Positions 5,290-52,203 of a DNA stretch of 64,000 nucleotides are shown here, piece by piece. The position numbers and the translations under genes were made by a program. Every line of letters starts with the position of its first letter. Positions within the stretch are counted from its first letter, which is position 1. The notes under the pieces are model-generated. The model did not search any database. It was given only the letters and a program-made list of their open reading frames with translations, and had not been told where the DNA came from. The stretch is taken from the NCBI GenBank assembly GCA_965112155.1, contig OZ218111.1, one strand, 5' to 3'. Origin of the DNA: Podarcis liolepis. Its lineage: Eukaryota.

Positions 5290-8200
5290 GTTACCAAAGG
5301 TTAGGTTTACTTGGGGTTAGGGGAGAGAGATGTGGGAAGGATATCTCCCTGGACGCTTTCCTTCCCCCCAGGTACAGCTGTTAAGGAGGGCCTTGCTCTG
5401 GCTGCAGGCACAGAGGGCACCTGCCAAGACTGCAGCCCTTGCTGGGGATTTCAGGCACCAGTTCCCTCCCCTCTTGGCAGCGCCTGCCTCTAGGGCACCT
5501 CGGGTTGTCATGGGGACCAGCATCACCAAAGCTCAGGCAACTCCCCAGGAAGGGACAGAGGCAGCGCCTGAGAGCTGCTCTCTCTGTCCAGTGGGCATGC
5601 TGGTCACTGCAGAGCCACGTTCCACCTGCAGCACTGATCCGGCACCAGAAAAAGTCTTCCTGGGCATGCTTTGAACAAGCTGAATGGTCTCTAGTGGCTC
5701 CTGGATGGTTGCTTCTTGCTGCACAATGGGACAGTGGATAGAACAGCTGCATTGACCCCAGGATAGGAACCAGAAAAGGCGGCTTCCCTTTGTGAGGGGA
5801 AGTGATCCGTGTCTCATGGGGCAGGCACCAAGGCGGCCAGAACCAGATTGTACCTGGGTTTGTAGAGACCCTGGCCAGAAGGAGAGCAAACTGATGTGGA
5901 CATCAGCTGCGGAGAGGCTTGGGCTGTGATAGGTAGGCTGGTTCCATGTGCTGCGGCTACTTTTTGATGCTTGAGAGGGGAATGGCACCTTTGAGCTCAG
6001 GCATTGTGGGGTGGGTGGCAGCCCCTGAAGGATGGGTGAAGGAGCAAGAGGTCACATGTTGTTTCCTTACCTGTGGTGCAAGGTCTCAAGTGGGGATCAG
6101 GAGGGGTGGCAGGGCAAAGGTAGGGCTTCCCAAGTCGACTGGAGCACCTGTCAAGCAGCCAGCCTCTCATTGCAAGGAGCAGTGCCTGGCAAGCTAGCAG
6201 CTTCTTGGCCTCAAGCCTGCTTCCCCTGCCCCAGTCAGTAGACAGGCAAGAGGACTCATCTCTCCTTGCAAATGTGCTCAAAAGGTGAGAGACACCGCAC
6301 TGCTTTATTCCCTAAACTCCTAGTATAAACAGAAGGCAGGAGCTCTCTCAGTGAAGGGCCAATCCTGCAGGAAGTGTGAAGGGGCACCCCTTACGAAAAA
6401 TCATGCTGGGAGCTCTGTGGGCTTAGGCCACTGGCAGGGAAAGCAGTAAGGGAGTTCTCAGGATGTGCCTCATGGGGTTTTATGCACCTCCAAAAGGAAA
6501 GAATGGAAACTGGGGGTAGAGCAACCGCCTTTGCACATTGAAAGGTCCCAGATTCAATCCCTGGGGGCAGCTCAAGGGGAAAACCAAAAAGGTCAGGTAG
6601 CAGGCAGTGGAAAAGGTAGAACTGCAAAGTCATCTGAATCATTAACTGGAAGTATGACAGGACATAGGCAAGCATGCACAGATCCCACCCTTAAAAGAAA
6701 TATGGCCAGTTAAGAGAAAAAACAAAGCCCTAATTACAAACCTTTCTGAAAGGACTTGTGCCAGCTTTATGAATGATTAATGCAATCTAATTCTGATTGC
6801 GGTCAATGAGAAATGAGGATCTGAGCAGAACTCCTGGAAATGAAGTATGGAGTGGTTATGGCCCAAAACCTTTTGGGGGAAGATACCACCAGGGATTGAG
6901 CCTGGGACCGTCTGTGTGCAAAGCCTGAGCAGTGGTCCTCCATTGCCTTCCTTCTCAGTCAGCTTATTCAGAGCAGAGGAGGTCCCTCTGCAACCCACAT
7001 CTGTGATAGGCAACCGGTAGATAATTCACACTTAAATGCAGTCTTCAGTTTGGCAGCTCCCTCCACAACGTTCAAATAACATAACCAGGAATGAGTCTAA
7101 AGGGATTCTCTATCCAGTTACTTCTTCAGTTTGACCCAATGTTTCATGTCCCAAAATTTCACAATAATGGATTATTTTTTTAATGGACACAATCAATGTT
7201 TTGATTCTATAGAGCAGCATCCAGCAAAGTGTGAGAATCTCTGGTTTAATCACAGAGCTCCCTCCTCCCTTTCTTCTCCCCATGCACCCCCTAAATCTGT
7301 TCCAGAATCCCTGCCCCACTCTGAATGGTATTAGGGGACAACACAGACAGAGGGAGGGGAAGTTCCATTTCACAAACAGGACAATGGAACCACACATAAT
7401 CTCTCTTGAAGAGTCAAACCGCTGCATTGGTAGCTCTGAAGTGACCTTCCATGGAGCCCAAGCCTGAGCAGTGCATACAGAGGTCCTTATCTCCCAGGTG
7501 ACAAGACCACCCTCTTGGCCTTGCTGATGTGGTCCAAAGGAAAGCAAAACATTTGGCACCAGCTTGGCTGCAAGTGTTGCCAGAAGCAAGTGTACGAGGT
7601 GCCATTCATTCTTTGTAGGGTTTACTCCTTTTCTTGTCCTGAAGATATCCCACAAGGCAAGGCAGTGGAGGTTTAGGATCAATGTCTTCCTTCTCCTACG
7701 TAGGCTACCTTCTCAGGTTGATGAGCCACATCTGACCCTCACTCCCTCTACTACAGCATGTGCAGAAACTGCCTCCTGACTGTTGGACCCACTACTGGTC
7801 TCGTCCGCTCAATCTGCTGGACCCTGTCTTCACATGCAGGGAAAGTCCCTAACTCATGGAGGGTTTGAGACCCATCAGTTACCCTCATCAAAAGGTGTAG
7901 CTCTAGACAATGACAAAACCCTGAGTGTTACAAATGCAACCAAGAACACCAGTGACACTATTAGGAAGCCAAATGCAAACTTTTGTTGCCTACAGCTTGG
8001 GGGTTTCCCACAGGGTTAGGGTTCAGCACCTGGTTGGCTACTGTGAAAACAGGATGCTGGCTAGATCCAGTAGGCTCTTCTTACATTCTTACAGTAGATG
8101 AATATTATCTATCCCAGTAAAACCCATACCCAAGAGAAGTGCTCCTGGATTCTTGGCTGTTTGTTCTGTAGAAGCCTGCCCCCCGCCCCCAATATGGGAC

Positions 8201-8614
8201 GCTGCCCAGAAAGTGCTTGCCTGTCTTTCCTGATGTTGAACACAGCAGGTGCCTGGATTCTGAGTGGAGGCCTGCCTTGGCGTAAAAAGCCCCCTGGGCC
8301 TTTCTCCTGAGCTGAAGACCCCGCTGGGGAGGCTCCTGACCACATCGTTTCTCCCCACTACTAGGCCAAACTCTGGCCCCTCCCATTAGCCAGGTCGCTT
8401 CCCTAATGGATCTTCCCTGCCCCCAGCTTGGCAAGGTCCCTGCAGAGGCAAGCCGTTAAGTGCAGCCTGGCCTAATGGCGCAGGGAGGTGCTTGATGGTA
8501 CCCGGTAATGGATGCGGGAGCCAGGCAGCTCTGTGTGGTTTCTTTGCTTTCCCTCCCTAGGAGGAGACAGTCAGAGCTGCCTCAGCCTTCAACACTGCTG
8601 CCGCTGCCGGGAAG

Positions 8615-10296
8615 ATGCTGCTCTTGCCCTGCCTGCTGCTGCTGGCCTTTCTCAGGACAGGTACCTGCATCTGGTCTCCCTTCTCTCCCTTCCCCACCAG
8701 CCCAGTAGCCCCCCAGGAGCTCCAACTTGCCGTGCCAAACCCACACTTTGAAACTGCAGTCTCTATAGTCTCCCAGGGGCTTCTCAGCCCATGTGCAGAT
8801 CTGCTTCGAGCAAGACTCCCGCTCTCAGGGGCTTCAGGGCCATCCTAGAGCTAAGTAAAAGCCCTGTTTGCAGGGTGCCACTTGCTCTGGGGTGTCCCAC
8901 CAGCTGGAGGAAGGAATCAACCTAGGATCCAAGCATGTTGACAAGGAATGATGGGCCTGTGTTTGTGTGCATGACAATTGGAGTGTGTGCATGAATGTGT
9001 TTGAGACAGAGAGTTAAGCTTGTGTTCATAGGCCAGTTTGCCTGCAAGTGCTCTGCTCAGTTTCCCAGTCAGTATGAGGAAAACCTTTCCCAGCTCCTTG
9101 CATCTTCCAACCCAAGGACAACTTCACCAGACAGACTTCTGCGCGTTGCCAATGCAGATCTGTCTGATTGGAACTGGGTACCCTCAAATCCCTTAGCACA
9201 GAACCAGTCACTTTCAGTCTTTAGTGGGTTTGGCTTTACTCTTTATGGGAAACAAATGTCCCTGGACCCTGGGTACTGGTTGTCTGAGGTCTGATCTGGC
9301 TCAGGGCAGGAAGTGGTTCTCCTCTAGCAGAAGTGTCCGCGACTTTGCAGCCTTTTTTATTAGGATACTTTCCCTCGCTGTTCAGCCCGCTTCCACAGGA
9401 CTGCCAACCACTCTATAGCCAGGCGACCGAAGAGACGCTGAAACGGCAGTCCCTGGGCCTGCCTGCCCCCTCCCCGGGGTCCTCCTGTGTGGGCTTTCAG
9501 CAGGGCTGGAGCGGCAGTATCCTCCCCCCTCCCCGCAATTCTCCCGCGAGCCCCGGCAGGGAGGGCAGCCCCCCCCCCGAGCACCCAGCTTGTTCCAATC
9601 GCTTCCTCTTTCCAGCTGGTACCCAAAACGTGCACCTTTGCGAGGGCTACCTGGACCCCGCCGGGCTCCACCACGCCGGCTTCTACTGCCCACGCCTCAC
9701 CGACCCCCCGACCCACGCCTACTGCTGCCTGCCTGCCGCCTCTCGCCGCTTCAAGTCCTGCTGCCCACGGCCCGAATTTGAGAGGCTCCGCGGCAATGCC
9801 TCGGCTTCTGCTCCGCCAGCCGCGCCCCGGTGAGATGCCCTTGTGGGGGGACGGGGGGGCGAGAGGGGTGTTGGGGGTTCCCCTCTTCCTCCCGTCCTTC
9901 CGTCTGAGCCCGCTTTCCCTCCACAGGAGCCCGCTGGGGCCGCTGTTGGGCGTGGGGCTCTACGGCTGCCTCGTCCTGGCCCTCATGACCGTCGACTTCC
10001 TTCACTTCTACCGCCTCCACCAGCGCAGCTTTCACCGCCTCCTCCACCGACGAATCCTCGGGAGGTGCCCCTGCAAGAAACAGGAAGCCGGAAAGAAGGC
10101 ACGCGGGGCGGGCGCGGCGGGAGGTGGAGCAGCTCCGCTCCCGGACCGCCCGGTCTCTTCTCCGCTGGGCGCTCCAAGGGAGGCGCTGCCAGCACGTGGG
10201 TCGGCTAGGGAGCGGCTGTCGCGCTCGCGTGGCGTCACTAGAGCGCGCCATGGAGGAGACGGCGGTGAGTGGGGTGGGCGGTGGGAGCCCAGCTGA
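8615..10296 (+). CDS. Shisa-like (SHISAL1/KIAA1644-type) single-pass membrane protein, about 209 aa, three coding exons
   Basis: Exon 8615-8660 encodes the signal peptide [15 protein letters not shown] (phase 1). Exon 9616-9829 encodes the Cys domain [22 protein letters not shown]...YCC...FKSCC..EF plus an NAS sequon (phase 2). Exon 9927-10296 encodes the TM segment [23 protein letters not shown] and a basic, Pro-rich tail. All splice phases match. The 3' end is the least certain part. Confidence 0.85.
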
Positions 10297-13200
10297 CCCC
10301 CAAACCGAATCGCTCATCCACCCCGCCCCTCTTATCTCCGCAGGTCCCGGAGCTCCGCCGGGAGGGCAACGAGCTCTTCCAGACAGGCCGCTATGAGGAG
10401 GCGCTGGCCGCCTACACCCGGGCCCTCAGCCTCTGCCCTGGGGATGGCGAGGAGCCCGACCCGCACCGCGCTGTCCTCCACCGCAACCGCGCCGCCTGCC
10501 ACCTCAAGCTGGTGAGTGGGGAAGTGGGGAAAGCGGGAGGGTTGCCTGAGTTATGGGAGCCCCCCAAGGGGCAGTGCCAGCCTGCCTACCTGCCGCTCAC
10601 TTCTGCAGGAGGAGAAAAGTTGGACACTCCTGGGGAAATTCTAAGGGATTATTGTCTTTTCTTCTCGTGTCTTTTCTTCTCAAAATTCTCAAATGACGTA
10701 GTACGCATCAGAAGGTAGCAGGCATTGTGTGTGTGTTTTCCCCTAAATGGCCACAGAGCTTCCCTGTGCCCCCAGTGTCAACGTTTCTGTGCATCTCTCA
10801 TTTTAACTGTGCTGAGCCCCTTTAGGTGAACTCCTTTTCACCCTGCTGCTCCTTAGAAGCTGAGGTGCCTTTATGCACAGTCAAGGGGAGCCCTCAGGCC
10901 TGGCTGTCTGGCTGTGACGGACTGAGAAGACAGTGGCCATATAGTGAGAGGCCAGCCTGATGCCTTGCCTCCTCCTTCTCCTCCTGTAACCTGCAGAGAA
11001 TTTAGGATTTGACAGATGTCCCCCAGAAAGGTGGTCAGGGCTGTCATTTTCAGCCTGAGCTCCTCTTGAGTATTTTCTTCTCCCCTCACTCCCCTGCCCC
11101 GCTCCCCCGCTTATATTTCCTTTCACCGATGCCTCTCTGGCATTCTGCTTCTTTTGCAGGAGGACTATGTCCAGGCAGAACTGGACGCTTCTAAAGGTGA
11201 GCTGCAAGGGGTGGGGTGGGGGATTACTCTCCTTCCAAAAGTCTCTTTCTCTGCAGAAGCCTCTTTGCTGCCTCTTAATACTTTCTTGCCTGTTCACAGC
11301 TATAGAAGCTGATGGGCATGACGTGAAGAGCCTCTTCCGGCGCAGCCAAGCCCGGCAGAAACTGGGCCGCTTCGACCAGGCCCTCCTGGACCTGCAGAGG
11401 TGTGTGAGCCTGGAGCCCAAGAACAAGGCCTTCCAGGAGGCTCTGCGCAACCTTGGCAGCAGCATGCATGAGAAGGTAGGAGAAGCATTGGGGGAGTGTG
11501 GGCATTGCCAGGGTAGGCGCCTCCCTTGTGGGGCAGCCTAGCTCTCCACCCAGGAAGGATTCTGGGCTTCAGGTGTGTACTGGGCTTCTGAAGTACGACT
11601 GTGGGGTTTCTCACCAACTGCCTGTTTGCTTCAGATGACAGCCATGTCCCGCACAGACTCCAAAGTGGAGCAGATGTTTAAGTTGCTGCTGGACCCTGAA
11701 GAAAAAGATCTGGACAAGAAACAAAAGGTACCCCTCTAATCAGCAAGCAGGTAGGAGGTGTGATGTGCCCTGATGAAGAGCAATTTTGGGTGTGCTGCAG
11801 CTGTACATATATGGGATGCAGTTGTAGAATTAGGCAGTCTCCAGTTCTGTTTTCTATTTCAAAATGCAAGTTTTGCATTTCCAAATTTGCCTGTAGGCAA
11901 AAGCCAGAGGAAGGGTTTCTGATGCCTGGATCAGGATACCTGAGGGAGGAAGGGAGGAGGACTTTGAGTCATTGTACCGTAACTTCCTTTTCCGTGACTG
12001 ACAAAACCAGAATATATTAGGGTGGTGCTTATTTTAATACGATCAGTCTCAGTCTAGAGTGATTCATTCTGTCTCATGGGGTTTGTATACCGCCCTTCAT
12101 CCAACAATCACAGGGCGGCTCATAACATCAAGTCATCCTAATGTTGATGGGCGTTACAGTGCAGCAGCACCTGGAGGGACTCTGCAGGCTTCCCAGCTCT
12201 GCCCAAGGAGGAGATCCCCACCCCCATGGCTCTTAGAGAAACAAGGACAATGGAATTATTATGGGCCAGAATCTCCAAACCTCTCCAGCTCTAAATTCTG
12301 GGTGTGCCCCTCCAACAGCTGTGTGGCCTGATGGGGAGCGGTTAAAGCGAGCCCCTTTGTCCAGCTAACTGGCTCTTCTCCTGTCCAGGCAGCTCAGAAT
12401 TTGATTGTTTTGGCTCGCGAGGAGCCTGGTGCTGAGAAGATTTTCCAGAACGACGGGGTGCGCCTCCTGCTACAGCTGCTGGATACAGGTCGGGCAGACA
12501 CGGTGCTAGCAGCTGTGCGAACCCTCACTGGCCTTTGCAGTGGGCATCGTTCTCGGGTATGTCCACTTTTTAAGATGAAAGCTTCTTCACTCTTTTTTTT
12601 GGGGGGGGGGGTAACAGGTTCAGTCCATTTACTGACAAGTTATGCATAAAACTCTCTCCAAAACCTGTTGCTTCAAGGGCATGCCACTTCTCCGAGGGTG
12701 TGTGTGCCTGGAACATGTCCCTGACCTTGTACTGCCTCAGGAGGTTAGGGGCGAACCAAGTGGTCTCTTCTGTCCCCCTACAGTACAGAGCCATGGCTTT
12801 CTCTGCCTCTGCACCTTCTTATAGGTTGCCACTCCATCCTCCTGGCAGGCACAGAGTTGAGTTTTCACCCATGTTTCAGGCTGGGGAAGGGGATGGAATC
12901 ACCCCTCCCTCTCTGCTGCTCCAGTGTTGAGAAGAAACCTCAGGCTTCCTATTTGCTGGAGTCTGGCTAACCACCAGTGATTCACCAAGAGTGCTCCCCA
13001 ACAGTTCCTTTTCCAGTGACAAATGGGGTACTGCAGGGCCTGGTGTTGTTCAACTTCTTGGAATGGACACCCTTCAAGTGGTGGACTCTCCTTTATTGGA
13101 GGTTTTAAAGCAGAGTTTGGATGGCCTCCTGTCAGGAATAGTTTAGCTGTGATTCCTGCATTTCAGAGGGTTAAACTGAAAGACGCATTGGGTCCCTTCC

Positions 13201-16200
13201 AACCCTACAATTCTATGATGACTTACCGTGGTGGACAGAGGGCTAGCAAGACTGTTGAATACATTCTGCAAGATAACCTAGATATTCCTCTAGTATAAAA
13301 AACCCCCCTAAACTCTGTCTCCTTGGGTAGGTTTATGGGTCCCCAGAGTTCCTACTGACAAGCCACAGTTGCACTTGTGGAGTTGCCTACTAGGCAGGTA
13401 TCCAGTTCTGCTCTGAGCTATGTGGGGGAGGTAACTGGTTCTTGAGAGACAGGCCTGGATTCCTCCCCAAGTCTCAGTGGATGCTGCCCTTCTTTCAGAC
13501 TGCAGTGATCCTGGCTGAGCTGGGGCCCCAGCGCCTCTTTGCTATCCTAGAGATGGAGGACGAGCAAGTCTCGCTGGCAACCTACAGCCTGCTGCAGGTT
13601 ATGTTTGATGCCCTCAAGGAGGGGCTGCAGAGGGATGTCCGTGGCAAGGAGGAAGCTGTGGTCTTGGGTGAGTCTCCTGGGTGCCTCCCTGCTGGGCTCA
13701 GCATCCACTTTGTGTTGTGCCAAGCTCATCTTCGTGCTGATGCCTTGGGTGGAGCTGGGCTGCGAATGCTGGCCTGGAGAGAGGAGGCTCAGACCTCCTC
13801 AACTCTGATTCTGCTCCTGTAGATACATCCAAAGAGCTGAAATTGCTCCTCAAGCAGCTGCTGGAAGCCCTGACCCGGGAGAGCATTTCCTCCTATGGCC
13901 GGGACAGCATCCTCAACCTGCTGATCAGTGTGGTGCCCAGGAAGTCGCTGAAGGACCCCAACAACTGCCTGACCCTCTGGGTCATTGACCAGGGTACGTC
14001 TAGCCCATTCCTGAGCCCCTCCTCTTCCTGGCCTGGGTCCCTCGCCAGCGCCAGTGAGCATGTCTGTCCTCACTAGGTCTCAAGCAGATCCTGGAGGTGG
14101 GGGGCACAGTGAGCCACAGCCCCGGGGGCCTGCGGGTGACAGAGAACACCCTCATGAGCGCAGCCGTCCTCCTCAGCAAGCTCTATGGGGACCTGAAGTG
14201 CGACGGGGAGCGGGAGAATTTCCACCGGCTCTGCGAGGACTATGTCAGGTAGGCCTGTGACTGACTCGGGGGCTGCCCACTGCTGCTTCTGGTAGGGGGT
14301 GCTGGGAAGGCATGGGGGGCCAATGAAGTGGTGGGGAGTGATGCTCAGCGCTTAGTTGCTGACAGACATCGAAAGCGTCATAACAGCCCATCAGCTTGGC
14401 CAGAGACACCCAGTTACTGTAATTCATGTACTGGTTGCTTCAAGACTGGATTACTGTAGTGCGCTCTATATGGGGCTTCCCTTGCATCTGATCTGGAAGC
14501 TGAAGCTAGCGCAGAATGCTGCAGCTTGATTGCTGAAAGGAGCAAAAACTTGTCAGCATATAGCACCCATGCTCAGAGATCTGTACTGGTTGCTGATTTG
14601 CTACCGAGACAAGTTCAAAAGGTTACTATTAGTATGCAAAGCCCTTAATAATTTACCTGTGAGACTGCCTTAACCCAGATACGCTCACTCAACCACTTCC
14701 ATCTGCAGAATTGGCACTGTTCCAAGTGCCATATAATACCCGTTCTGCATTTATAATAAATGGATCTTCTAGTGTGGTGATATCAGGCAGGCACCTTCAT
14801 TCTACTCTTTTTGACGTCTACTGAAAGCATTTTTGTGTAGGCAAGCCTACCCATATATTTAAAACGCTGGTGTGTTTTTAGTTTATTGCTGGTTTTAATT
14901 TTTAGAATGTGTTGTTTGTACTAATAATCTTACTGTTTCTTTTTATAAACCACTTTGAGGTTTTCTACAATCACGTGATATATAGATGTTATGAAATAAA
15001 TACATAATAGTGGGTGGGAGGAGGACTTTTGCTGCCAGAAGGTGCCGTTGGTTGATCTCGGATTTCTTTCTGGTGCAGAGTTTGGGGTTTCAGCTTTGGA
15101 ATGTCTGTGGTAGCTTCCTGGCTGCTCCTGACGGGCCGCCTTTCCTTCACCTCCCAGGGGCTGGTTCCAGGACCATGGCGTCCCTGGGAAATTGCGGGCC
15201 ATCCAGACGGCCTCCTGTCTCCTGCAAGGCCCCTCCGAGGCTGGGAACAGGGTGCTGGAGCTGAGTGGCATCATGGAGAGCATTCTGGCCTTGTGCGCCT
15301 CGTCACAGGAGGCCGACCAGCTTGTGGCCGTGGAGGCCCTGATCCATGCTGCCGACAAGGCCAAGCGGGCCACCTTCATCACTGCCAATGGGGTGACACT
15401 ACTGAAGGAGATCTACAAGCACAGCGAGCGCGACAGCATTCGCATCCGGGCCCTGGTGGTGAGCAAGAGGCAGCAGATCTTGGAGAAGGAGGGAGACATT
15501 TTCTGGCTGCAGTGGGACCCCACACTGTTTCTCTTTTTTATAAAAAAAAATTATTAAATTTTCCAACATACATTTATAGTATCCAATCTAAATTTATCAC
15601 ATATTTTCTCTTTTAGACTTCCTTCAACCTCTCTGACAATCATCCATTATTCAAATTTTTAAATACGCATTTCCTAATTTTATATTGCATTTTATAAACC
15701 TTCACACACTTAGTTTTCATCAATACAATAGTCCTCTATCATTTACAGAACTTCTTGAAATCCCACTAGCATTATTTGCTCATCACATACACATTTCAGA
15801 TAGTCTGAAAATTTTCCCCAGTCTTCAATGAACTTTTGATCTCGTATATATCTGATCTTTCCTGTTAGTTTGTCCGGTTCAGCATACTCCATCAGTTTCA
15901 TTCTCCATTCTTCGAGCGTCGGCAGTTGTTCCTGTTTCCATTTTGGGGCAAATAATATTCTCGCTGCTGTTGCTGCATATTGGAAAAGTTTACAGTCCAT
16001 TCTATTTATTTCATTTCCTACTATTCCTAGAAGAAAAGCCTCTGGTTTCTTAACAAACGTATATTTCAACATCTTTTTCATCTCATGATATATCATTTCC
16101 CAGAAGCCCTTCACCTTCTTACAATCCCACCACATATGATAAAATGTTCCTTCTTTTTCTTTACATTTCCAACACCTATTACATGTTTTATACATTTTTG

Positions 16201-50668: not shown

Positions 50669-52203
50669 TCACTCAGGTAGCCCTCTGGCTTTAAACAGCA
50701 GCCACAATTTTTCCTCCAACACCGGGTTTGTCCCACGCAAGCCCGTCACTACCTTCGAAGCCCAGTGGAAGTACTCCTGGACTCGGTTCTCGGACCAGCC
50801 TGGCCAAAGAGAGACAAACCCACAAGTCAGAAATTCACACTTGCATCCATACACAAGCCTGACTACTGCTTTGCCACACACTGTGACAGCTGGACTTGCT
50901 TTGCTACTTTAAGGAGGGGATCAGAGCCGCTCAAGAAGTGGGGTGGAGACTGTGTGATCTCCCTGACCTGTTCCACAACAGCATTGATGTCTACTAGCTA
51001 AACCTGTTCTCATAGGTGCTTGACTCTTCAGTTGACAGCAGTGCTCACCAGAGACTAATTTGGGAAAAGCTACATGACTTTGCTATTTGAACTCATTTTT
51101 GTGTGTGGCCGGAACTGTGTACAGCATAGGAAGGTTTTGTATTATGTTTTGTCCAAGCTGAATATTTTAAAATGCTGTACTAGATCCTGCCCCCACCAGA
51201 TTATAGATACAGAGCAGAAGTCTTAATAAATTAGTTATTGAGCTCCTGTTCTGTAACACAGAAAAGGACAGCAAGGATCCTGCCATCCCATGCCAGCTAC
51301 TCCCCCTCCTTTCAGAAGGGCTACCCAAGGTGGCTGGCCAGAGACGGACCTCGGGGTGTGCAGCGGTTGAGATCTCGCAGGTTGTACAGCTTGTCTGCCA
51401 GTTTCACCAGCTTGGCCTCTCGGCTGCTCTGAGCAGCATGTTCAATCTGCAGCCGCTTGCGCTCCTTCTTGACCAAAGTCTTGTCATCCGTCACTTCCTC
51501 CACAATTCGCCTCACTTCCTCCCCGAAGTGCTCCTCGATCTCTGAGAAGGTGGTGTCTGTGTCTTCAACAGTGTCATGGAGGAGAGCAGCCTGGAAATAG
51601 GAGGTTCTTGATGCTCAGTTTCTAAAGGACTTTGATCCCCAACACCCTGCCCTCTTCTTTGAAGTACTTTTCTGCAGGAATGCAAAGCTATTCACACATG
51701 CTTAATGGCACACTTATTATGAGTTTTCCAGGCTAAGCCTTGCATCGCTGTGCTTGGAAGCTTTAAACTAGGACAGGGAAAATATCAGGGAGGGAGAGGG
51801 GGTGCCCTTACCTGTAGTATTGCAATTTCCGTTATTCCAGCTTCCTGTGCCAGTATCTGGGCTACACCTGTGGGGGGGGGTTAGACAGAGGGGCAGTACT
51901 TAGCTTCTAAAAGGAATAAGAGAATTGTAGAAATGGAAGGGATCACGAGGGCCATCTAGTCCAACCCCCTGCAATGCAGGAATCTCAACTAATGCATCCA
52001 CGACAGATGATGAACTGGAAGTGTAGCCCCCGTCCCCACTGCATTGCGGAAGAAAGCGCACACTGCACATGCTCAGGAGACTGCTCACCGATGGGGTGGT
52101 TGATGTACGGCGTGCCTTCCGGGTCTTTGCGGCGCTGCGCCGCGTGCTTCCGTGCCGCGAAGTCCGCGGCGTCCAGCAGGCGCACCGCGTCCGGGGCACT
52201 CAT
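50669..52203 (-). CDS. HDDC3: HD domain-containing protein 3 / MESH1 (ppGpp hydrolase-like, NADPH phosphatase), 4 exons
   Basis: Minus-strand exons 52203-52089 ([26 protein letters not shown]), 51867-51812, 51590-51350 ([32 protein letters not shown]) and 50799-50669 ([14 protein letters not shown]). Confidence 0.97.

Follow-up and report, generated by a model that had tools for sequence, protein, structure and literature searches.

How the transcript of a gene ends when its reading frame runs on into the promoter of its neighbor is a question raised by 64,000 nucleotides of the lizard Podarcis liolepis (GenBank assembly GCA_965112155.1, contig OZ218111.1; this whole stretch is called the window, position 1 being its first letter). 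In the window, a Shisa-like gene and the chaperone gene UNC45A abut on the plus strand. The three Shisa-like coding exons (8615-8660, 9616-9829 and 9927-10296) form an open reading frame (ORF) of 209 amino acids (aa) that ends with TGA at 10294-10296, inside UNC45A intron 1. A sequence-only reading had taken this layout as a same-strand overlap with a short dual-coding segment, and had proposed an mRNA that is bicistronic, is sensitive to nonsense-mediated decay (NMD) or ends at a cryptic intronic site. Our analysis points to a different outcome. A rare, conserved, in-frame read-through isoform of the conjoined-gene type is the best reading of the locus; with moderate confidence, we propose that a rare transcript of the Shisa exons is joined by an in-frame GC-AG splice to UNC45A exon 2, which predicts a chimeric UNC45A.

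The read-through joint

All RNA evidence comes from a related, Podarcis-like organism (organism A), partly as assembled contig runs, which have no RNA record attached and were counted as RNA because they are spliced, and partly as three raw-read runs, of each of which 6-12% was read. The contigs are unstranded and cannot show single molecules. Record 2 of contig run X1 (3,167 nt) covers 9489-10098 and then continues at 10344 into UNC45A exon 2 (10344-10511, Pfam TPR) and three further UNC45A exons. The joint was reported as 10096 to 10342 with three shared letters and was resolved to 10098/10344. It is in frame with UNC45A and uses the acceptor that is common to both UNC45A isoforms. The corresponding intron (10099-10343, 245 nt) has GC-AG borders and holds the core promoter of UNC45A together with its first exon and first intron, hence the splice excises the whole proposed overlap as well. 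Template switching was considered as the origin of this joint and deemed unlikely, since only three letters are shared and the acceptor is exactly the normal one. The in-frame read-through splice is real, at a low depth of evidence. The expectation that the Shisa-like mRNA shares exons with UNC45A was thus borne out insofar as one RNA joins exon 3 to UNC45A, while the expected route via the UNC45A donor at 10265 was not seen. Neither is the bicistronic or NMD-sensitive outcome favored, because the observed joint stays in frame and the out-of-frame route from 10265 did not appear. A donor located before about 10200, which had been named beforehand as speaking against the overlap, was found at 10099.

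At the protein level, the same joint (..K/V[PS]ELRREG, the slash marking the joint) occurs in the RefSeq UNC45A isoform X1 models of P. muralis, P. raffonei, Lacerta agilis and the amphisbaenian Rhineura floridana, i.e. in four of the six species of the cluster, and the joint in the contig from run X1 reproduces the P. muralis model. Rhineura keeps the frame across the joint despite a segment that is 6 residues longer. All four models begin at the internal methionine encoded at 9985-9987, which gives an extension of 38 aa in the window, and not at the signal peptide. The joint is therefore already present in automated annotation, where it is filed as a UNC45A isoform and has not been recognized as Shisa-derived. 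No paper linking the Shisa-like gene with UNC45A was found in a literature search that was done at title level for most papers, covered few subscription journals and had supplements outside its reach. Several isoforms are also described for human UNC45A (PMC11128996). Gene models in which both genes are fully fused are on record for P. lilfordi, Elgaria, the birds Turdus, Hirundo and Anser, the turtle Terrapene and the fin whale. They were discounted as transcript evidence and regarded as predictor merges of close neighbors, since every joint is different; they do show that the two genes are neighbors across amniotes.

Splicing further upstream is indicated less directly. Contig ends in k-mer assemblies can be read as branch points of the assembly graph. 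Two contigs of run X3 (9801-9955 and 9926-10206) have ends at the positions 9801, 9955 and 9926 predicted for a k=31 bubble between the spliced and the retained form of intron 2 (9830-9926, 97 nt, GT-AG), and these end positions imply that Shisa exons 2 and 3 are spliced; in contigs, the intron itself was seen unspliced. The ends expected for an intron 1 bubble (8631, 9642 and 9613) were not matched as a set, because an X3 contig ends at 9613 and not at 9642, hence the splice between exons 1 and 2 is unsupported by this approach. In the related species, intron 2 is longer by net +9, owing to insertions of +1 and +8. An ORF of the window that begins with the ATG at 9796 or 9835 traverses the retained intron 2, enters the transmembrane (TM) segment and continues past the GC joint; judged from this frame, a transcript that keeps the intron could give rise to a UNC45A with TM segment but no signal peptide.

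Several observations weigh against the proposed read-through isoform. The contig from run X1 retains intron 2 and begins in intron 1, and the splice between exons 1 and 2 was not seen in the contigs. The GC joint was found in one of four runs and is not among the 15 joints shown of 27 from four more runs, and the donor at 10099 is left unspliced in a contig of X3, a run that shares its sample code with X1. In the portions read, the GC joint is spanned by no raw read, and the depth over the Shisa region is 0 in run X23 and at most 0.34 in X24. The GC donor is weak (5/9 consensus matches), comparable donor-like sites exist in exon 3, three of five of which are in frame anyway, and a frame kept over one indel, as in Rhineura, is expected in 1 of 3 cases by chance. 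Moreover, the donor directly follows an ETS-like motif, so the conservation of the donor may only reflect constraint on the promoter, and the unstranded contigs may merge antisense with sense RNA. Finally, the RefSeq models are predictions, the support of which may overlap between species or with run X1; an isoform X1 model is missing for Zootoca, and P. lilfordi has another joint.

The open tail and the UNC45A promoter

The structural part of the sequence-only reading was confirmed. The Shisa frame is open from 9928 to the TGA at 10294-10296, passes over the UNC45A ATG at 10250 in another frame as well as over the donor, and ends inside UNC45A intron 1. A transcript of this frame spliced from 10264 to 10344 would meet a stop at 10394-10396, 115 nt ahead of the next junction, which makes it a predicted NMD target. 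Likewise, AATAAA and ATTAAA are both absent between the two genes, and in fact from the entire plus strand between 8500 and 14754; the first downstream AATAAA on this strand lies at 14755.

The meaning given to the overlap did not hold in the same way. In 20,000 dinucleotide simulations at 72% GC, an open frame of 88 codons had a probability of P=0.30 in this frame and of 0.67 in any of the three frames, and three of the six frames are free of stops over 10030-10293. The two-frame overlap with UNC45A coding exon 1 (10250-10264, encoding MEETA, donor GT at 10265, represented by the RefSeq isoform X2 models) comprises only 5 codons. Comparison with orthologues gave a similar picture, the stop and donor positions of other species being judged from their proteins. 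Among 85 orthologue models shorter than 500 aa and carrying the TM-end motif, the tail after the TM-end Asp has a median of 52 residues compared with 99 in the window, a length reached by 7 of 85. When the anchoring motif was left out, similarity to about 10098 reached a median z of 3.7 for 13 amphibians and 2.2 for 9 turtles, while past the donor the medians dropped to -0.5 and 0.2, i.e. the 65 residues after 10098 are unconserved. In the motif-selected and hence biased set, z exceeded 3 in 68 of 85 models before the donor and in 4 of 85 after it. The conserved Shisa similarity covers the basic amphipathic segment and ends at about the GC donor. A metagenome scan for the corresponding loci of relatives yielded 81 pattern matches, none of which was confirmed. 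The proposed dual-coding segment 10250-10264 was accordingly not upheld, because its second frame is of chance length and unconserved, and the observed splice removes 10099-10343. That the frame stays open beyond the UNC45A ATG is likely due to the GC-rich promoter DNA that it crosses.

An indel or assembly error that masks an earlier stop, which had been offered as another way out of the overlap, was rejected: contigs of the related Podarcis cover most of the tail with 0 gaps (X3, 9926-10206; X5, 10280-10510), and exon 2 is single-copy in the genome. The stretch 10207-10279 is covered by a few X21 reads only. One DNA run holding 1.00 of the sequence words was left out of this check, as it may be the source sample. 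Four variants of the related species were seen in exon 3, and none introduces a stop.

The non-conserved open tail (10099-10296, 65 aa plus the TGA) reads as promoter DNA, because ETS-like, GC-box and CRE-like motifs lie here within a CpG island. The core promoter of UNC45A spans 10088-10240 (CpG observed/expected 0.87-0.88) and includes what we take to be an ETS-like motif at 10088, GC boxes at 10106 and 10146 and a CRE/ATF-like motif at 10230. Two loose ends in run X21 match the Smart-seq3 template-switch tag, the identity of which follows PMC9546772. They define a plus-strand 5' end near 10240 (4 reads), 10 nt ahead of the UNC45A ATG, and a minus-strand 5' end near 10175 (5 reads, probably from one molecule). 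Strand invasion was rejected as the source of the minus-strand tag, since the best match to the molecular identifier has 3 mismatches, whereas 1 is allowed according to the same source. Given tagged 5' ends on both strands, the promoter is probably bidirectional. The UNC45A 5' untranslated region (UTR) is very short, its start about 10 nt before the ATG lying directly after the CRE/ATF-like motif.

The ordinary joint from 10264 to 10344 was represented by 2 reads in X23, 1 in X24 and 12 in X21, and loose ends carrying UNC45A exon 1 numbered 13 and 11; no read or contig in the runs examined links this joint to upstream Shisa exons. In the two stranded runs, the depth over the Shisa region (0 in X23, at most 0.34 on the sense strand in X24) compares with about 15-31 on UNC45A exons, i.e. 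Shisa-region RNA amounts to about 1% of UNC45A mRNA or is absent. These counts indicate, if weakly, that ordinary UNC45A mRNA starting near 10240 dominates. Transcription through the CpG island had also been thought to couple or interfere with UNC45A expression, which might be possible but is probably a small effect at these depths.

Unspliced contigs also extend over the interval from MAN2A2 to the promoter of UNC45A (6800-10206), with a depth of 9-13 in X3 compared with 0 in UNC45A introns. Genomic DNA was considered as their source; it is unlikely in X3 in view of this difference and possible in X5, X6 and X8. The RNA over 6800-10206 may be divergent antisense transcription over the Shisa-like gene, with read-through from MAN2A2 as the alternative, and part of the unspliced RNA over the Shisa-like gene itself may be antisense. 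On the minus strand, AATAAA is found at 9356, 6304 and 5245.

Identity and surroundings of the Shisa-like gene

Exon 1 (8615-8660, 46 nt, GT donor at 8661) encodes a signal-peptide-like N-terminus with a hydropathy of 2.8-2.9 over residues 1-13, as judged by hydropathy without a dedicated predictor, and is covered by unspliced contigs only. Exon 2 (9616-9829, 214 nt) encodes the six-cysteine Shisa_N ectodomain (PF13908, 24.2 bits at a cut-off of 22). The conserved part of exon 3 (9927-10098) carries the TM helix and the basic amphipathic juxtamembrane segment up to the GC donor; the single TM segment following the Cys domain has its best 19-residue window (1.98) in residues 93-112 and aligns to the orthologues. 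None of the three exons is disrupted: their GT-AG sites match in phase, and the six cysteines and the glycosylation sequon are retained. The predicted residues 1-144, including the N-terminus, are identical to the P. lilfordi model P0072. The UNC45A exons of the window match the P. raffonei protein.

By sequence comparison, the gene is placed as a paralog and not as the orthologue of SHISAL1. A closer SHISAL1 match exists on contig C5 of the same genome, and in a tree of 29 rows the 7 SHISAL1 rows stand apart from 19 paralog rows with a support of 94/96, the paralog side itself being largely unresolved with long branches. The Cys spacing is 15-11-0-10-0 in the Shisa-like protein and 15-11-0-9-0 in SHISAL1, while the exon 2 length of 214 nt is common to both genes. 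For family features we relied on PMC10531659, which assigns a proline-rich tail with PY motifs to the Shisa 1-9 subfamily. The motif [LP]PxY is absent from the window protein as far as the GC donor, from SHISAL1 and from three orthologues, and none is visible in the 65-aa tail. In SHISAL1 proper (C5, near 4227350), a strong donor appears to split the stop codon (TG/GT), which implies a separate 3'-UTR exon; the UNC45A-side paralog has no room for such an exon.

Stand-alone models of the paralog with their own stop exist in birds, turtles, python, amphibians, coelacanth, ray-finned fishes and some mammals, with Liasis as the only stand-alone squamate model among the matches of the protein searches. 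The paralog looks intact in models of vole, pangolin and whale (orthologues P0202, P0197, P0217, P0223 and P0129 were inspected). In a capuchin monkey model and in one unnamed protein, the Cys domain appears to be followed directly by a frameshift, which suggests, as far as such models go, decay of the paralog in some mammals. The tails of turtle orthologues contain tandem repeats and reach up to 251 residues (P0022, P0025, P0030 and P0032), and a short Gly-Arg-x-Cys-like motif terminates many bird orthologues.

The gene order in the window is MAN2A2 (3' end, assigned from the sequence), the Shisa-like gene, UNC45A (10250 to about 20736) and then RCC1-repeat, MAP65/ASE1, HD_4, Neugrin and TTL-family genes, the downstream genes having been identified in a Pfam scan of 69 of the 144 ORFs listed. 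The HD_4 gene (HDDC3/MESH1-like; 51324-51614, minus strand) is the sole match in the genome and is situated about 30 kb downstream of UNC45A near the Neugrin gene. Human HDDC3 is presumably arranged head-to-head with UNC45A, where the lizard Shisa-like gene sits, which would imply a local rearrangement. Within 7400-8100 and about 12080-12150, many foreign contigs match at 88-95% identity, as expected of interspersed repeat copies.

Possible explanations and comparison with known systems

In the proposed mechanism, the SHISAL1 paralog, which lacks its own poly(A) signal, adjoins the UNC45A promoter, and a polymerase starting upstream would be unable to terminate ahead of UNC45A. The first strong acceptor on its way would be that of UNC45A exon 2, which would be paired with a donor just past the last conserved Shisa residues. 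The expected product is a 974-aa UNC45A with a basic amphipathic N-terminal extension of 38 aa (hydrophobic moment 0.62 and net charge +7 for the Shisa-derived segment), which might bind membranes and whose Cys-x-Cys could be acylated. If exons 1, 2 and 3 were all spliced, a type I membrane fusion of 1,080 aa would be made instead.

This fusion might even be the main product, in which case signal peptide, Shisa ectodomain and TM segment would be followed by the cytosolic TPR-central-UCS chaperone, tethering myosin/Hsp90 chaperone activity to the membrane. The intact, phase-matched exons with their cysteines and sequon are consistent with it, as are a predicted topology that places UNC45A in the cytosol, the implied splice between exons 2 and 3 together with the observed one to UNC45A under the same sample code, the missing poly(A) signal, the solitary Liasis model and the fused models for P. 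lilfordi and Elgaria. However, no molecule or contig contains all parts, exon 1 was met in unspliced contigs only, the four isoform X1 models start at Met 9985, and the fused models differ in their joints and thus resemble merges by gene predictors. We consider it unlikely that the complete fusion is the main product. About as unlikely is the idea of a fusion in progress, in which the ancient Shisa-like gene of lacertids and amphisbaenians would have been deprived of its 3' end and persist only as the first half of UNC45A, with a productive mRNA for the 1,080-aa single-pass protein that exposes the Shisa ectodomain outside and carries the whole co-chaperone inside.

Splicing noise appears somewhat more doubtful still. 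Stray read-through or upstream RNA might be caught by a cryptic GC donor and remain untranslated or without function, the gene being barely expressed. The very low Shisa-region depth in the stranded runs and the weak donor fit this explanation, and the RNA upstream is to a large part unspliced and maybe antisense from the UNC45A promoter (tag near 10175, minus-strand AATAAA at 9356). Read-through splicing has moreover been reported for 4 of 20 random neighboring pairs (PMC4450057). Against noise, the same in-frame joint is modeled in lacertids and an amphisbaenian, and the coding exons are intact and conserved up to the donor.

Least probable is a dual-coding 209-aa ORF or a route via the 10265 donor that couples both genes in a bicistronic or NMD-sensitive mRNA: the frame is open and free of variant stops, it is touched by the unspliced contigs X3 9926-10206 and X5 10280-10510, the 10265 donor slightly exceeds the GC donor in strength (6/9), and steady-state RNA contains NMD targets in reduced proportion, but the openness is at chance level, the tail is unconserved and longer than in most orthologues, no contig joins Shisa via 10250-10264 to exon 2, and the X3 contig stops at 10206 and is maybe antisense.

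The overlap itself is ordinary; the earlier observation is confirmed and its interpretation partly supported. Under the read-through explanation, an apparent dual-coding oddity turns into testable read-through splicing, perhaps conserved across lizard families, and a whole Shisa-like gene, known from fishes to some mammals, is hidden within the UNC45A annotation of these lizards. The chaperone UNC45A is predicted to gain a new front end, possibly a membrane anchor. The full fusion, if produced, would represent a membrane-anchored UCS-family myosin chaperone and a gene with lost 3' end captured by its neighbor; if only the short form is made, a modest N-terminal UNC45A isoform would result.

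Among known systems, the dual-coding exons of CDKN2A (INK4a/ARF) and GNAS (XLas/ALEX) use two frames of the same strand. The present locus differs from them by an overlap of 5 codons, in which the second frame is unconserved, of chance length and spliced out. SHISAL1 (KIAA1644) shares with the Shisa-like gene the signal peptide, the six-Cys Shisa_N domain, the 214-nt exon 2, the single TM segment and the lack of a PY motif, but it sits on C5 and groups apart. The RefSeq UNC45A isoform X1 has the same joint, and its extension of 38-44 aa corresponds to the cytoplasmic tail of a separate Shisa-like gene.

A closer functional likeness exists with Kua-UEV (TMEM189-UBE2V1) and TWE-PRIL (TNFSF12-TNFSF13), in which, according to PMC6862657, the upstream gene also provides an in-frame N-terminus and exon 1 of the downstream gene is skipped. 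The 3' partner is relocated in both cases, in TWE-PRIL by a transmembrane anchor. Those proteins have been detected, whereas here one RNA contig and gene models were found and the full-length form was not seen.

The general class is that of conjoined genes and splicing in cis between neighboring genes (cis-SAGe). As in these cases, two same-strand neighbors at short distance, well within 30 kb, are joined by splicing to the downstream exon 2 with the downstream first exon skipped; this exon-to-exon-2 joint is seen in the contig from run X1 and in four RefSeq models. In PMC4450057, the commonest pattern (11/16) is a splice to exon 2 of a nearby gene on the same strand, and new splice sites are common in conjoined genes (58%; PMC2953495 and PMC4450057). 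With regard to transcription from the promoter of the upstream gene and to one molecule with exons of both genes, the contig ends imply the exon 2-3 splice; the exon 1-2 splice and the 5' end were not seen in the contigs, which do not resolve single molecules. Exon 3 would be second-to-last only under the SHISAL1 layout with its 3'-UTR exon, and the donor is a GC site inside the last coding exon of the upstream gene, not the normal donor of a second-to-last exon. Two further differences set this locus apart: the upstream Shisa-like gene has neither a terminal exon nor a poly(A) signal, such that read-through may be obligatory, and the joint is modeled across lacertids and an amphisbaenian.

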